Source: Escherichia coli (GTDB lineage: Bacteria > Pseudomonadota > Gammaproteobacteria > Enterobacterales > Enterobacteriaceae). From it: DNA of 54,847 nt. The notes beneath the pieces are model-generated. The model was not told the DNA's origin, ran no database searches, and saw only the letters and a program-made list of their open reading frames with translations. The first letter of the stretch is position 1. Each line of letters opens with the position of its first letter. The position numbers and the translations under genes were made by a program. Below, in pieces: positions 3,004 through 51,361 of this stretch. Where the stretch lies: NCBI RefSeq assembly GCF_003334385.1, contig NZ_QOWN01000031.1; one strand, given 5' to 3'.

Positions 3004-3411
3004 TCAGTATCGTCTTTTGAGATTCTCAAGGTTATGGAGTAACCAGACAGAACGGACACCACTGTCGGAGATAAAAACCCCCTGTTTACGCAGCTCGTTG
3101 CTGGCCCGGTGCTGACCATGTGTCGGGAAAGCGACGGCGTAATCAACAACAGCCTGTTCAGTTGCCTCATCGGTACGGTTCTTAAGGTTAGGAGCGCGGC
3201 GACTACGATTAATCTGCGCATCCACACCGCCTTCAGCGACCAGTTCGCGGTAACGATAAAACGTATCACGCGAAACGCCCATGATTTTACAGGCTTTTGA
3301 TACGTTGCTGAGTTCTTCAGCCAGATTGAGCAAACCGGCTTTGTGTTTGATGACGGGATTGGCAGTATGAAGCATGAGAGTTACCTCTTGTTTTGGATAA
3401 GGATTCGACAC
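3004..3411 (-). pseudogene. ylbG: Transposase-like helix-turn-helix fragment (truncated or frameshifted IS remnant)
   Basis: 135-aa ORF with an HTH-like segment (KACKIMGVSRDTFYRYRE); continues in overlapping minus-strand frames 2976-3269 and 2774-2989, suggesting a decayed gene. Confidence 0.45.
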
Positions 3412-16404: not shown

Positions 16405-16560
16405 AAGCGGATGCGATTTATATCGCATAAGAGTGCAGTACTCATGCCGGATGCGGCATGAGTACCATATCCTTCCTGAAAATCGCGCAAATTCTATATA
16501 TTGCAGAGATCATGTAGGCCTGATAAGCGAAGCGCATCAGGCAATGTTACAAAAAAAGCC
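16405..16560. repeat. REP/palindromic-unit cluster between convergent glxK and allE
   Basis: Palindromes gtactcatgccggatgcggcatgagtac and gcctgataagcgaagcgcatcaggc, plus hairpin gccacggtataaaccgtggc. Confidence 0.6.
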
Positions 16561-16619
16561 ACGGTATAAACCGTGGCAAAATCCAACATAGCTAAAAATA
16601 ATCAGGCGAGTGGTATGAC

Positions 16620-38097: not shown

Positions 38098-38174
38098 GCG
38101 CCCTTAGCTCAGTTGGATAGAGCAACGACCTTCTAAGTCGTGGGCCGCAGGTTCGAATCCTGCAGGGCGCGCCA
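38098..38174 (+). tRNA. argU: tRNA-Arg (anticodon UCU)
   Basis: 77-nt cloverleaf sequence gcgcccttagctcagttggatagagcaacgaccttctaagtcgtgggccgcaggttcgaatcctgcagggcgcgcca, anticodon loop cuUCUaa, encoded CCA end. Confidence 0.95.
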
Positions 38175-39580: not shown

Positions 39581-39830
39581 GGTTACCTCTGCTTTTTGAA
39601 CGCATGTCACGTAACTTCTTAATGTGTTCTGCCGTTTCGATCTCTTCTGCTATCCGATCTGCATCAGCTTTATTCACAGGTTCAAAGTCATGATTAAAGC
39701 GGAACATGCTGGCGATACATGTTCTGCCTTTTCGGATGTAGTGAACTTTGTTGTGGGTAGAACGCAGGATTTTGCAGGGAGTGCCGTGGTGGTCGACGTA
39801 CCAGGTGTTAGGAAAAATGATTCTGAACAT
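39552..39830 (-). CDS. Hypothetical phage protein
   Basis: 92-aa ORF in the int-proximal early-left region. Confidence 0.35.
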   Translation of the reverse strand: MFRIIFPNTWYVDHHGTPCKILRSTHNKVHYIRKGRTCIASMFRFNHDFEPVNKADADRIAEEIETAEHIKKLRDMRSKSRGNHGIIQPHTR

Positions 39831-43719: not shown

Positions 43720-44583
43720 TCATTTCGCATCTACAATAAATAACCTGTTTATCTGGCCTTTTTTAACAGTAGCCTTTGCGGTTATAGTGAATACTGCAGA
43801 TGGATCACCTTTGGTTGATATATATGCACTAAGAGCTCTAATATACGGGTTATTCTTCTTTCCTGCAGCTGGATCGCTAATTTCAGCAGTGATTCTCTTT
43901 TTTGAGTCATCACCATCTAAAATTATTTTAGCTGTCATATTTTGTGCATCAAATTCTGTAAGAAAAGCACGATACTCACGAAGACCGAGAACTTCATCAT
44001 CATCAAGCCTATCAATTTCAGCTTTATCTCTCTCGTTAACTTTTAGAAGGCAGCCGTCAACATTTGTTGCAACACTTATCTGATCGCAAGTATTACCAAT
44101 AGGTGATACTGCCTGCCTTACAGAGGGGCGAAGCTCTACAGCCATTCGGTCAATCAAAGAGATCAACTTATCAATGGTTCCAGCATCCTTGTTTCCCAGT
44201 GCCTCTATGGCCTTTTCAAGTGACTGCTGCAAAGCTTTCATTTCATCTTTCTTGTTAGAATTTCTCGCAAAAATATATTGTAGTATTGCGCCAAGTATAG
44301 TTGCGGCGATCCCCGAGAACAACTGGTTCTGAGTGGCGAAGTTAAGAACTGCTTCAAGAGTAAAGCAGTTAGCTTTTGCTTCGCGTGCGTAAACCTTAAC
44401 TTCCTGATAATTAATGTATTTACTATATTTTTGTGTAACAGAGAAAGAAGCTGCTGTTGAGAGAACTTTAGAAAAACCCTTTAGGGATTCTCCTAGGCAG
44501 TTCAAATCTATTTCATGATTTAAAGCATCTTTTCCGTCATACCTAAGAGAGATTTTTATATCCTGTAAAGCGTCACAATCCAT
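43720..44583 (-). CDS. Unknown-function 287-aa protein at the rexAB-equivalent immunity-region locus; candidate lysogen-expressed anti-phage/superinfection-exclusion protein
   Basis: Directly downstream of and co-oriented with the cI-like repressor; visibly AT-rich versus flanks; central hydrophobic segment [19 protein letters not shown]; followed by an intrinsic terminator; no motif I can assign. Confidence 0.55.
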
Positions 44584-44649
44584 AAATCGCTCTCGTCTAA
44601 TTCTAATTAAATTTACTATCCCCTAAACGACTCATCAGCACAGTACTGA

Positions 44650-45339
44650 TTATCCATGTTTCCTGTACGTCTGGGGCATGCTCCCAATAACCTTACCGAA
44701 GATGAACACACGGTTCATCTCGTCTTTCTCGATCGGGTCCCACGGTGAGTAGCTCTTGTTATCAGAGATAACCAGCAGCTTATCCTTCATCATTTGCAGG
44801 CGCTTTACATGGGCTGTGTCGTCGTACAGAAACGCATAGATACCATCACCGTCGAAAGATTTAACCGTGATATCAACGAACAGCAGATCACCTGGTTCGA
44901 TCGTTCCTGACATGCTGTCACCACGCACGTTAATGATGCGGATATTTTCCGCCTTCCTACCATCGAACATGTGACGAGCATCGTCAAACGAGTACTCAAC
45001 CGAGCGTAGAACTTCTACAAACTCACGGTTGATGACTCCCGGCCCAGCACTGACTTCTATATCAAGAACGTCAATCTTGAAGTATTTGGAATGGCTGACA
45101 GTTGATTGTATTGGTTGCACTGTACTGTCTGACATATTTCCAACGCCAGAAGATAACCATTCTGCGCGCACACCCAAAGCGTTCGCGATCTCCACGATTT
45201 TAGTTGTTTGATTAGCTTTCCCTGTTTCGATTTTCTGAATAGCAGCCTGGCTAACCCCGACCAAATCCCCAAGCGCCTTTTGTGTAAGGCCTCGCGCTAA
45301 TCTGGCTTCTTTAAGTCTTTCTGAGAGTGTTGTTTTCAT
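44650..45339 (-). CDS. cI-like prophage repressor (HTH plus S24 LexA-like autopeptidase domain)
   Basis: Start taken at MKTTLSERLKEARLARGLTQKALGDLVGVSQAAIQKIETG (XRE HTH); C-terminal domain with GDSM motif (NVRGDSMSGTIEPGD) and a downstream lysine (HVKRLQ); divergent from cro. Confidence 0.8.
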   Translation of the reverse strand: MKTTLSERLKEARLARGLTQKALGDLVGVSQAAIQKIETGKANQTTKIVEIANALGVRAEWLSSGVGNMSDSTVQPIQSTVSHSKYFKIDVLDIEVSAGPGVINREFVEVLRSVEYSFDDARHMFDGRKAENIRIINVRGDSMSGTIEPGDLLFVDITVKSFDGDGIYAFLYDDTAHVKRLQMMKDKLLVISDNKSYSPWDPIEKDEMNRVFIFGKVIGSMPQTYRKHG

Positions 45340-45443
45340 AGTCCAAATGTACAACCAAGGTTTTATTCCATCAAACGAAAATGGTTGTTGACTAAAAACA
45401 ACCATAGTTTTAATCTTGATTCAAATTAACCACGGAGGTTGTT
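45340..45443. promoter_or_regulatory. Putative OR region with pR (and presumably pRM) between cI and cro
   Basis: Palindrome ATGGTTGTTgactaaaAACAACCAT (45381-45405); TTGACT (45388-45393), 17-nt spacer, TAATCT (45411-45416); additional GGTTGTT/AACAACC half-sites at about 45350 and 45437. Confidence 0.6.
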
Positions 45444-45674
45444 ATGAACCCAGCTATCAAAACAGCGATCAATATCGTTGGTTCACAAAAGAAACTGGGC
45501 GCTGCTTGCGAAGTTTCACAGCAGGCCGTCTATAAGTGGCTTCACAACAAAGCAAAGGTATCCCCTGAACATGTCGGCAGCATTGTTACGGCTACTGGTG
45601 GAGTAGTGAAGGCATACCAGATTCGCCCGGATCTTCCGAAGTTGTTTCCACACACCGAAAAGAACGCAGCTTAA
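45444..45674 (+). CDS. Cro-like small DNA-binding protein
   Basis: 76-aa ORF divergent from cI with GGAGG ribosome-binding site; HTH-like segment LGAACEVSQQAVYKWL. Confidence 0.65.
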   Translation: MNPAIKTAINIVGSQKKLGAACEVSQQAVYKWLHNKAKVSPEHVGSIVTATGGVVKAYQIRPDLPKLFPHTEKNAA

Positions 45675-45743
45675 ATTTCCATTTCACGCTCTTTAACAAT
45701 AAGCAATCAACTTAACAGTCAATTCAAACTAAAGGAGTCAATT

Positions 45744-46283
45744 ATGCAACCACTTACATACCAACAGACTAGCGGATTTAGCCCGACTGCGGTGATAAAT
45801 CGTTCTCAAACAAAACAGGTGCCAGGCCACGAAAAAATCCGTGATGCCGTCCGCGCCTGGTCGGCTGTAGATAATCAGGATGTCGTTGCCACACTCATTG
45901 TGAATGAGTATCGGGAGCAGGGCGGCGGCACCATCGATTTCCCTGATGATGTCAGCCGTGCACGCCAGAAGCTGTTCCGCTTCCTCGATAACAAATTCGA
46001 TTCTGAAAAATACCGAAATAACGTGCGTGAACTGACCCCGGCAATTCTGGCGGTACTACCGCTGGAATATCGCGGTTACCTGGTTGAGCAGGATAGCTTC
46101 ATGGCTAGGTTGGCTGAAATGGAAAAGGAACTCAGTGAGGCAAAACAGGCTGTCATTCTCAACGCACCACGCCACCAGAAACTGAAGGAAATTAGTGAAG
46201 GTATTGTGTCGATGTTTCGTGTGGACCCAGATCTGGCTGGTCCATTGATGGCGATGGTTACTACCATGCTGGGGGCGATATGA
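45744..46283 (+). CDS. Protein at the cII position (possibly YdaT-like regulatory protein)
   Basis: 179-aa ORF between cro and O; family assignment uncertain. Confidence 0.35.
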   Translation: MQPLTYQQTSGFSPTAVINRSQTKQVPGHEKIRDAVRAWSAVDNQDVVATLIVNEYREQGGGTIDFPDDVSRARQKLFRFLDNKFDSEKYRNNVRELTPAILAVLPLEYRGYLVEQDSFMARLAEMEKELSEAKQAVILNAPRHQKLKEISEGIVSMFRVDPDLAGPLMAMVTTMLGAI

Positions 46284-46369
46284 CAGGTTCAGAAATGGCG
46301 AAAGCCGGTCTGCTGGAACAGAACCGACTTTCAGGTGCAAATCGTAACACACTCATTGCGGGAGGAATT

Positions 46370-47299
46370 ATGGCAAACACTGCTGAGATATTCAATTTTC
46401 CAGTGCCGGATGCGGCACAAAAGGAGCCGCGCGTGGCAGATCTCGATGATGGTTATACGCGCATTGCAAATGAGTTGCTGGAAGCTGTAATGCTGGCCGG
46501 ATTAACACAGCACCAGCTTCTGGTCTTCCTGGCTGTCATGCGCAAAACATATGGCTTTAATAAAAAACTGGATTGGGTGAGCAACGAGCAACTTTCCGAG
46601 TTGACCGGGATATTGCCGCACAAGTGTTCTGCTGCAAAAAGTGTTCTGGTAAAGCGTGGGATTTTTATTCAGAGCGGGCGGAATATCGGCATTAATAATG
46701 TGGTCAGTGAATGGTCAACATTACCCGAATCAGGTAAGAAAAATAAAGTTTACCTGAAAGAGGTAAATTTACCTGAATCAGGTAAGAAAAGTTTACCCAA
46801 ATCAGGTAAAGACGTTTACCCGAATCAGGTAAACACAAAAGACAAACTAACAAAAGACAATATAAAACCTTTTTCGTCCGAGAATTCTGGCGAATCCTCT
46901 GACCAGCCAGAAAACGATCTTCCTGTGGTGAAACCGGATGCTGCAATTCAGAGCGGCAGCAAGTGGGGGACAGCAGAAGACCTGACCGCCGCAGAGTGGA
47001 TGTTTGACATGGTGAAGACCATCGCGCCATCAGCCAGAAAACCGAATTTTGCAGGGTGGGCTAACGATATCCGCCTGATGCGTGAACGTGACGGACGTAA
47101 CCACCGCGACATGTGTGTACTGTTCCGCTGGGCATGCCAGGACAACTTCTGGTCCGGTAACGTGCTGAGTCCGGCCAAACTCCGCGACAAGTGGACCCAG
47201 CTCGAAATCAACCGTAACAAGCAACAGGCAGGCATGATAGCCAGCAAACCAAAACTCGACCTGACAAACACTGACTGGATTTACGGGGTGGATTTATGA
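46370..47299 (+). CDS. Replication initiator protein O
   Basis: Start taken at MANTAEIFNFPVPD; N-terminal region resembles lambda O (VADLDDGYTRIANELLEA...LAVMRKTYGFNK); contains iterons internally. Confidence 0.8.
   Translation: MANTAEIFNFPVPDAAQKEPRVADLDDGYTRIANELLEAVMLAGLTQHQLLVFLAVMRKTYGFNKKLDWVSNEQLSELTGILPHKCSAAKSVLVKRGIFIQSGRNIGINNVVSEWSTLPESGKKNKVYLKEVNLPESGKKSLPKSGKDVYPNQVNTKDKLTKDNIKPFSSENSGESSDQPENDLPVVKPDAAIQSGSKWGTAEDLTAAEWMFDMVKTIAPSARKPNFAGWANDIRLMRERDGRNHRDMCVLFRWACQDNFWSGNVLSPAKLRDKWTQLEINRNKQQAGMIASKPKLDLTNTDWIYGVDL
46721..46833 (+). repeat. Replication origin iterons inside the O gene
   Basis: Five copies of about 19 bp TTTACC(C/T)(G/A)AATCAGGTAA(G/A), followed by an A-rich stretch (acaaaagacaaactaacaaaagacaatataaaacc). 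Confidence 0.75.
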
Positions 47300-50208: not shown

Positions 50209-50718
50209 ATGTCTGGTTGGGATAACGGTATAGATGCAGTTTCTGCGATTGCAGCTATCGCATCTGCGGTAGCAACTTATTTAGCATGGCGATCCTCAGA
50301 AGCTAGCAGGGCCACATCCGAAAAAGCTTTGCAGTTGCAAGGAAAGCAGTATTTGTACGAGACATTAAAAGCTTGCGCTGAGAGAGCGAATTCATACTCA
50401 AAAGGAAAGAAAGGGGCTGACTGGAGCTTTCATGACGCAGCCAATATTGTTCGATGTTTGAACATGGCAATGGGGAGCATAATAAATTACTCAGATACCA
50501 ACAATCAGGATGCAATGAAAGGTCTGAAGCAATTCTTTATTAGCCAATTAAACATGGAGCTTTTTGAAGAGCTCAACTATGAGGTTGGGCCTGATGCCTT
50601 CTTTCACGGAGAGGAGCTAACCAGCATGACGAGCGATATTTACTCGCAGTGGTTAAACATTATTTCATTCTTTAACCTCATGATTGTCACAGATGATGAC
50701 CTCGCCGATGAAACATAG
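50209..50718 (+). CDS. Unknown-function 169-aa membrane-anchored protein; moron-like cargo
   Basis: N-terminal hydrophobic helix (IDAVSAIAAIASAVATYLAW); AT-rich; insulated by an upstream hairpin and a 187-bp downstream spacer; occupies the variable locus that carries emrE/ybcKLM in K-12 DLP12. Confidence 0.5.
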   Translation: MSGWDNGIDAVSAIAAIASAVATYLAWRSSEASRATSEKALQLQGKQYLYETLKACAERANSYSKGKKGADWSFHDAANIVRCLNMAMGSIINYSDTNNQDAMKGLKQFFISQLNMELFEELNYEVGPDAFFHGEELTSMTSDIYSQWLNIISFFNLMIVTDDDLADET

Positions 50719-50905
50719 CTTGATTGATTTTCCATAATCAACCCGCCATAATCATGTCATCGGAGCCTGAACAACTCCGGTGACTTCTGCGCTAAACGGG
50801 GACGTTTATGCGCATATACAATCCAAACTCTCTTCTCCCTTCACAGATGCAGAAATGCACCTGCGTTTTTTTGCATCCAACGTTTGACCTCTGCGGAGGT
50901 GAAGC

Positions 50906-51361
50906 GTGAACCTCCCACAAGACGGTATCAAATTGCATCGCGGTAACTTCACCGCTATCGGTCAGCAGATCCAGCCTTATCTGGAGGACGGAAAATGCTT
51001 TCGCATGGTGCTTAAACCGTGGCGTGAGAAACGCAGTCTTTCCCAGAATGCACTCAGCCACATGTGGTACAGCGAAATCAGTGAATACCTCATCAGCAGG
51101 GGTAAAACGTTCGCCACTCCAGCTTGGGTAAAAGATGCTCTCAAACACACATATCTCGGTTATGAAACCAAAGACTTGGTTGATGTCGTAACCGGTGAGA
51201 TCACCACTATCCAGTCGTTACGCCATACCTCCGATCTTGATACCGGAGAGATGTATATCTTCCTGTGTAAGGTTGAAGCCTGGGCGGTGAATATTGGCTG
51301 CCACCTGACTATTCCGCAGAGCTGCGAGTTCCAGCTGCTCCGCGACAAACAGGAGGAGTAA
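50906..51361 (+). CDS. ybcN: DLP12-type NinB-position protein (DNA base-flipping protein)
   Basis: 151-aa translation [50 protein letters not shown] matches K-12 YbcN as I recall it; GTG start with GGAGG ribosome-binding site. Confidence 0.8.

Follow-up and report, generated by a model that had tools for sequence, protein, structure and literature searches.

A long YdaT-family protein at the cII position of an Escherichia coli lambdoid prophage is a phi80-type CII, with a predicted target upstream of the nin/Q genes

The 179-aa ORF following the cro-like gene of this prophage is a phi80-type CII, a transcription factor of the YdaT family that is common, already described and of normal size for its kind. 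Family membership, fold, gene context and a conserved recognition helix all place it there. We consider it likely, with good confidence, that this protein binds inverted repeats of the TTGATT-N6-AATCAA type, raises cI transcription and favours lysogeny. While the gene itself was already known, a perfect box of this type at the promoter of the nin operon is the new lead.

The DNA analysed (54.8 kb in full, hereafter the window) was identical to a chromosome segment of E. coli SCU-104. A lambdoid prophage makes up the right-hand third of the window and adjoins a tRNA-Arg gene and intD, which is the DLP12-type arrangement. The cro-like gene (45444..45674, plus strand, 76 aa; ATG 45444, TAA 45674) encodes a YdaS-family protein with matches to Pfam YdaS_toxin (PF15943, E 4.9e-17), more weakly to P22_Cro and HTH_3, and to PHROG 35, 'transcriptional repressor' (E 1.5e-27). 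The cII gene follows on the same strand after a gap of 69 bp (45744..46283, 179 aa; ATG 45744, TGA 46283), with an AGGAG Shine-Dalgarno sequence 7 nt 5' of its start. The gap also holds the sequence CGCTCTTTAACAA (45687..45699, plus strand), which we read from the sequence and take to be boxA-like. Divergent from the cro-like gene lies the gene for a cI-like repressor with HTH and S24 peptidase domains (44650..45339, minus strand). This repressor matched PHROG 4 (E 5e-73) from residue 23 of a longer ORF, and RefSeq has an S24 family peptidase at the same coordinates. Adjoining cI is a 287-aa gene whose product showed 62% identity to that of phi80 gene 40A in a tblastn search of the window, and lambda-type O and P genes lie to the right of the 179-aa ORF. 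Such a context, after a YdaS/Cro-type gene, with a divergent repressor and with replication genes downstream, fits the YdaT family.

The 179-aa ORF matched Pfam YdaT_toxin (PF06254, E 1.4e-29, residues 67-154) and PHROG 163, 'CII-like transcriptional activator' (E 3.9e-67, residues 17-179). RefSeq has the same ORF as WP_001182903.1, a 'toxin YdaT domain-containing protein', so the original prediction was right that a YdaT-like protein follows the cro-like gene. In a translated search of phage genomes, the annotated cII of Escherichia phage PhiR34_1 was 100% identical to the ORF. Identity to other named cII products was 66% for phi80 (residues 1-179, the full length), 67% for mEp237 and 52% for HK225 and HK639, and it ranged from 52% to 73% when CobraSix was included with the latter three. 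YdaT-like and cII-type are therefore not alternatives, although the earlier reading had treated clear homology to a cII-type activator as evidence against itself; such homology was found to phi80 cII and not to lambda CII.

At a DNA identity of at least 90%, 2214 of 5426 complete E. coli genomes (about 41%) carried the gene. Homologues in Citrobacter, Klebsiella, Enterobacter, Leclercia and Salmonella shared 65-73% identity at 100% query coverage and were 179-180 aa long. Because these homologues of the same length align end to end, the length is real and not an ORF-calling artefact. The named phi80-type CIIs fall into the same length class (179-181 aa) and have in common with the protein an N-terminal extension MxSLxYQ, the recognition helix and the tail PLMxMVxxMLG. 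The two genes together span 45444-46283, and the second of them is, as had been pointed out, longer than lambda CII (97 aa). However, the description 'unusually large' does not hold, since this size is normal for the phi80-type subgroup and the gene is so widespread.

Compared as a single sequence, the protein matched the solved YdaT structures weakly (8bt1, E 0.002; 3c4r, E 0.004). A profile of 32 homologues matched them in the PDB with E values of 1.2e-21 and 1e-19, respectively. The AlphaFold2 model, based on the alignment of these 32 homologues, had a mean pLDDT of 84. When it was searched against the PDB with Foldseek, only 8bt1 and 3c4r were confident matches (probability 1.00, target-normalised TM-score 0.67-0.70, 26-27% identity). 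In the model, residues 1-25 are predicted to be disordered and are followed by a POU-like domain of five helices (29-43, 45-58, 70-82, 88-104 and 107-113). Helix 45-58, an 11-residue loop (59-69) and the recognition helix 70-82 (SRARQKLFRFLDN) make up the helix-turn-helix of this domain, which had been thought to be lacking. The loop between helix 2 and the recognition helix measures 9-23 residues across the YdaT family (PMC9986795), and this unusually long turn, a family trait, explains why the motif is not visible by eye.

The recognition helix QK(L/I)FR(F/W)LD is common to the 179-aa protein and its YdaT homologues. F78 and R79 were nearly invariant among the 32 homologues, and Arg79 aligns with R57 of Rac YdaT and with an Arg of CP-933P YdaT. 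An amphipathic long helix (119-138) was predicted with high confidence in the monomer model and corresponds to the four-helix-bundle helix of CP-933P YdaT. By analogy, the 179-aa protein would form a tetramer through this helix. Two extra C-terminal helices (143-159 and 162-178) and a conserved hydrophobic tail (PLMAMVTTMLGAI) occur in the phi80-type subgroup only.

Two members of the YdaT family have been studied experimentally, and the 179-aa protein resembles both. CP-933P YdaT (8BT1; also 3C4R) belongs to the same Pfam family, has the same POU-like HTH with a long helix 2-3 loop and a long helix behind it, and is encoded after ydaS, as here. The recognition helices of the two proteins are nearly identical (QKIFRWLD in CP-933P against QKLFRFLD here). 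However, with 141 aa CP-933P YdaT is shorter, having neither the N-terminal extension of 25 residues nor the two C-terminal helices, and is only 26-27% identical to the 179-aa protein. Rac YdaT (E. coli K-12 b1358) is of the same family and keeps the DNA-contacting Arg (R57 in Rac, R79 here). However, it too is a short form (140 aa), regulates the host gene rcsA and is toxic when overexpressed. Rac and CP-933P YdaT are only 30% identical to each other.

CP-933P YdaT is a tetramer held by an antiparallel four-helix bundle of its long helix, and footprinting showed it to protect the inverted repeat TTGATT-N6-AATCAA where ydaS meets ydaT. In vivo, it turns on PRE933P, a leftward promoter that is otherwise silent, and no toxicity was seen. 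An mBio paper has described it as homologous to the CII of phi80. The site of Rac YdaT is ATGATT-N6-AATCAA, placed over the ydaT start codon, and from there the protein raises the reverse promoter for racR (PracR4) 29-fold; H56 and R57 are needed, and the double mutation abolishes DNA binding. Weak operators between the repressor and cro genes are bound as well, and racR expression is lowered from there. The CP-933P box is bound by Rac YdaT in vitro, and the Rac-box promoter is activated by both proteins in vivo.

The Pfam names YdaT_toxin and YdaS_toxin, which the RefSeq name follows, suggest a YdaS/YdaT toxin-antitoxin pair in which the 179-aa protein would be the toxin and the cro-like protein its antitoxin, and overexpressed Rac YdaT does cause filamentation and cell death. 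We regard this explanation as very improbable. The fold is that of an HTH transcription factor, and the two genes occupy, between cI and O/P, precisely the places that cro and cII have in a lambdoid prophage. In addition, the toxicity of Rac YdaT is explained by misregulation of rcsA, CP-933P YdaT was non-toxic, and YdaS/YdaT has been explicitly rejected as a toxin-antitoxin system (PMC5917428). The literature on the homologues thus gives no support for the toxin role that had been proposed (PMC8630535, PMC5917428, PMC9986795).

Lambda CII offers a different kind of comparison. It shares with the 179-aa protein the place after cro and before O, and by analogy probably also the role of a tetrameric, pR-driven HTH protein that promotes lysogeny; an antisense oop-type RNA is encoded beside both cII genes. 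However, lambda CII binds direct repeats TTGC-N6-TTGC, and none was found in the prophage; three matches to this motif in the window all lay outside the prophage, against 4.7 expected by chance. Homology between the two proteins was rejected (BLASTP E 0.38; hhalign probability 1.9%), and Phage_CII was not among the domains matched by the ORF in the Pfam scan. We conclude that the 179-aa protein, although without detectable sequence homology to lambda CII, is probably its functional analogue.

The PHROG family name 'CII-like' and the RefSeq start of O at 46280, which overlaps the cII stop codon (ATGA), might instead be read as signs of a diverged lambda-type CII, or of an accessory or N-terminal part of the replication initiator O. 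That this is so seems hardly credible in view of the rejected homology, the missing Phage_CII match and the absence of TTGC-N6-TTGC repeats from the prophage. Furthermore, the overlap with cII is probably an annotation artefact, because the O-like profile does not match the annotated O before residue 31 and because the alignment places the lambda O start at 46370.

The 86 bp between the end of cII and 46370 contain a minus-strand promoter and a hairpin. The promoter (TTGAAT-17-CATAAT, 46367..46395, minus strand), found in a promoter scan and assigned by us to an oop/M3-like antisense RNA, lies where the sequence aligns with the beginning of lambda O; we named it pO-like on the assumption that lambda pO occupies such a position. 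The hairpin (46299..46333, minus strand; -26.2 kcal/mol, z-score -2.9), a stable element of the same predicted RNA, lies between the cII stop codon and the likely O start at 46370. No Rfam match was found for this oop-like RNA. M3 RNA is annotated at the equivalent position in the phi80 and HK639 records, where the phi80 record describes it as 'homolog of lambda oop RNA'. Unlike lambda oop, which overlaps the 3' end of cII, the oop-like RNA here would not overlap cII.

The suggestion that the lysis-lysogeny circuitry of this prophage differs from that of lambda is therefore borne out in part. The CII is unrelated in sequence, its oop-like RNA lies off cII, TTGC-N6-TTGC repeats are lacking in the prophage, and no homologue of cIII, the stability partner of CII in lambda, nor of lambda N or phi80 N, was found by tblastn anywhere in the window. 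However, the layout is common to both, with cI followed by cro-cII-O-P in the opposite direction, although several components are unlike.

Among the closest known systems is that of phi80, with its cII likewise placed after a cro analogue, an oop/M3-like RNA between cII and the replication genes, and a gene 40A homologue beside cI. However, the cI and cro alleles and the operators are unlike those of phi80, and the prophage here has lambda-type O and P.

Four degenerate YdaT-box-like sites, each with two mismatches to WTGATW-N6-WATCAW, were found near cro and cII. These are TTGACTAAAAACAACCAT in the pR/operator region (45388..45405), TTGATTCAAATTAACCAC 11 bp upstream of the cro start codon (45416..45433), TTAACAATAAGCAATCAA in the cro-cII gap (45693..45710) and GTGATAAATCGTTCTCAA over cII codons 17-22 (45792..45809). 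Four such sites in 422 bp (45388-45809) compare with about 0.2 expected from the window-wide rate, a post hoc estimate. In mEp237 cII, the position equivalent to 45792 carries ATGATAAATCGCAATCAA, with one mismatch. The 45792 site is also close to where the short YdaT genes begin, which have their box over the start codon: such a start-codon box occurs in Rac, in CP-933P-type loci and in an unrelated short YdaT locus with the perfect sequence TTGATATATGGATATCAA. About 26 related loci have a different cro allele; in these, the cro ATG is spanned by a perfect TTGATAATGACAAATCAA, which lies shortly past pR. Rac likewise combines several weak operators at the repressor/cro region with one strong box and activates its repressor gene from a distance. 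In contrast to CP-933P, where a perfect box covers the ydaT start codon, the prophage here has degenerate boxes nearby and a perfect one 4.4 kb downstream.

In the most likely scheme, which rests on analogy with the tested homologues, cII would be transcribed from pR directly after the cro-like (YdaS-type) gene. Its product would bind TTGATT-N6-AATCAA-type inverted repeats and activate an establishment promoter. The bound protein would then raise leftward transcription of cI and move the infected cell towards lysogeny. Some observations speak against this scheme. No perfect box is present at the protein's own locus, where the sites nearest to the ORF start are the two-mismatch ones at 45693 and 45792, whereas Rac, CP-933P and another short YdaT have a perfect or near-perfect box at the start codon. 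There is also no convincing leftward promoter near cII: a consensus scan of 44500-46500 found no pRE-like promoter and returned only the pO-like one, and on the minus strand around the cII start we saw no more than weak -10 candidates that are not conserved, such as a CATAAT overlapping the start codon. Furthermore, identity to the solved homologue is only 26-27%, and the protein carries 25 additional residues at the N-terminus and two additional helices at the C-terminus. Near int, a search for a pI-type site gave no match better than one with two mismatches at 39690, as would be expected by chance.

Alternatively, the protein could be mainly a repressor that delays lytic development through the nin/Q box and the weak pR boxes, with little or no function at an establishment promoter. 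The one perfect site falls over both the -35 hexamer and the spacer of its promoter, a position typical of repressors, and the other cro allele has its perfect box across the cro ATG, just past pR. A purely repressive role would also fit the empty scan for leftward promoters near cII and the lowering of racR expression by Rac YdaT from the intergenic region. However, we consider this unlikely, since both tested homologues activate transcription of the repressor gene (from PRE933P and PracR4) and the phi80 gene bears the name cII, which is presumably a genetic assignment. Our preferred reading thus remains that of a phi80-type CII that raises cI transcription.

The perfect YdaT box of the window, TTGATTTTCCATAATCAA (50724..50741), is its only exact match to TTGATT-N6-AATCAA, the sequence defined experimentally for CP-933P and Rac YdaT, and is predicted to be bound by the 179-aa protein with high affinity. 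This one perfect box compares with 0.055 expected in the window for the degenerate form WTGATW-N6-WATCAW. The box supplies the -35 hexamer of a sigma-70-like promoter (TTGATT-N17-CATAAT, 50724..50752, plus strand) and two thirds of its 17-bp spacer. This promoter lies upstream of ylcH-ybcN(ninB)-ninE-ybcO-rusA-ylcG-Q, where ylcH is a small ORF and Q encodes the late-gene antiterminator. The record of phage 82 (X92588) lists these -35 and -10 elements too, marked as putative. The position of the box between -35 and -10 makes repression the likelier outcome of binding.

Viral contigs were searched with a narrow alignment of 13 sequences, and the box, followed after 5 nt by the -10, was found in 45 of 80 contigs with a phi80-type cII, 3.9-8.6 kb downstream of that gene. 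By comparison, box and promoter were found in none of 80 viral contigs, of the same total sequence length, that carry a lambda-type cII. The nin-type box was also absent from all 80 CP-933P-type loci, which represent a single lineage and therefore carry little weight. All 26 phage-database records with the box-bearing leader encode a phi80-type cII, except for phage 82, whose partial record does not cover the cII region; they include the distant phages HK639, CobraSix, KO-TP1, phi80 and HK225. The nin module is a different one in mEp237 and in a Klebsiella phage, yet in both a one-mismatch box lies upstream of a related leader.

Counting half-sites and spacer, 17 variants of the box were found, of which 16 have the left half TTGATT. 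The right half-site is AATCAA or TATCAA, and the -10 is conserved in all variants. The nin box of the prophage here is TTGATT/AATCAA, while the phi80-type variant is TTGATA/TATCAA. Covariation of the half-site variant (TTGATT versus TTGATA) with the recognition helix was considered and rejected, because HK225 and HK639 have identical recognition helices and different half-site variants. This lack of covariation suggests that position 6 is probably tolerated rather than discriminating.

On these grounds we tentatively propose, giving it slightly less than an even chance, that the nin/Q box is a second, previously unnoticed target of phi80-type CII/YdaT proteins, and that its occupancy would directly shut down the nin genes and Q and replace, at the DNA level, the antisense mechanism of lambda paQ. 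In the scheme given above, the 179-aa protein would then also occupy this box, repress its promoter and delay the late genes as paQ does in lambda, a step that is more speculative than activation of cI. The phages to which this reading applies are ones without a detectable N or cIII. The left half-site is at the same time the -35 hexamer, so that part of its conservation is explained otherwise. Moreover, modules that descend together, rather than a functional tie, could account for the linkage between nin box and cII, and the ligand of the box could be a factor encoded within the nin module itself.

Transcripts from the nin promoter would begin with two hairpins (50757-50783 and 50790-50812), in which 6 of 18 predicted pairs showed compensatory changes and the first loop (CCUGAACAA) was nearly constant. 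No Rfam match was found for this leader. A phi80-type nut site was rejected as an identity for the leader hairpin, as the phi80 nutL core (CACGTAAACGTG) is unrelated.

Our analysis indicates that a gene labelled a toxin in databases is the usual lysogeny regulator in a group of E. coli prophages that is very common, and that its size and hard-to-see HTH are traits of the family rather than anomalies. If the nin/Q box is indeed bound, phages of the phi80/82/HK639 kind would couple the lysogeny decision to their late genes by direct contact of a repressor instead of an antisense RNA. The same box and leader occur in DLP12 of E. coli K-12 at 572284, upstream of ylcH, and Rac YdaT may therefore act on that operon. 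Regulatory cross-talk would then exist between unrelated cryptic prophages of K-12, with the YdaT of Rac acting on the ylcH-rusA-quuD operon of DLP12.

A putative regulatory target of the 179-aa phi80-type CII protein lay well downstream of its gene. A perfect match to the YdaT box, TTGATTTTCCATAATCAA, was found with a promoter (TTGATT-N17-CATAAT) at 50724-50752, upstream of the ylcH-ybcN-ninE-ybcO-rusA-ylcG-Q genes, and the -35 element and spacer of this conserved promoter themselves constitute the box. The combination of box and promoter occurred in 45 of 80 viral contigs with phi80-type cII loci versus none of 80 with lambda-type cII loci. The box also marks the exact left edge of the homology shared with related phages. 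Five nucleotides ahead of it ends a 169-aa ORF (50209-50718, plus strand) that matches PHROG 1779, a family of unknown function. Gene content at this position varies among related phages and, because they carry different genes there, the ORF looks like an inserted moron.

Two hairpins were predicted in the leader of the nin promoter (50753-50909). The first (50757-50783) has the conserved loop CCUGAACAA, and the second (50790-50812) has a GGGA loop and contains the start codon of ylcH, a 33-aa ORF at 50808-50909. Compensatory changes were found in six of the 18 predicted pairs of the two hairpins, which matched no Rfam family. In the phage 82 record, the first inverted repeat of the leader is labelled as a "possible regulator-binding site". 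Elsewhere in the window, Rfam identified the host sRNAs ES036 and STnc480 (16479-16613) and a tRNA (38098-38171; tRNA-Arg in RefSeq) that directly precedes the prophage integrase gene.

The annotated O start (46280) overlaps cII (ATGA), and the lambda O start aligned with position 46370, suggesting that the annotated start is probably 90 nt too early. A minus-strand promoter (TTGAAT-17-CATAAT, within 46284-46395) and a stable hairpin (46299-46333), the latter between cII and position 46370, match an RNA annotated as M3 in phi80 and HK639, which the phi80 record describes as an oop homologue. The M3-like RNA of the window prophage does not overlap cII.

In the immunity region, the cI-cro gap contains an operator-like inverted repeat, ATGGTTGTT/AACAACCAT (45381-45405), and an operator-like direct repeat, ACAACCAAGGTTTTATTC and ACAACCATAGTTTTAATC (at 45351 and 45398). 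The OR sites of this immunity type probably correspond to these repeats, which lie within 45351-45415. The element CGCTCTTTAACAA at 45687-45699, 3' of the cro-like gene, resembles boxA. By tblastn, neither N (of lambda or phi80) nor lambda cIII had a detectable homologue anywhere in the window. Immediately downstream of cI, where lambda carries rexAB, lies a 287-aa gene (43720-44583, minus strand) with 62% identity to phi80 protein 40A and a match to the functionally uncharacterised PHROG 5147. This gene may act in exclusion or defence and be expressed in the lysogen.

Perfect boxes were also found in other prophages. TTGATAATGACAAATCAA occurs at 3016-3033 of the comparison locus L021 and in about 25 other IMG/VR loci, where the cro start codon falls within the box spacer, a geometry seen at the ydaT start codon in Rac and CP-933P. 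These related prophages share their cII with the window prophage but have another cro allele. The K-12 cryptic prophage DLP12 carries TTGATTTTGGGAAATCAA (6285-6302 of L175, the DLP12 region; NC_000913 572284-572301) with the same leader, upstream of ylcH-ybcN-ninE-ybcO-rusA-ylcG-quuD. The paper on Rac YdaT makes no mention of the DLP12 box. Since DLP12 has both the perfect box and the same leader, its operon is predicted to be cross-regulated by Rac YdaT.
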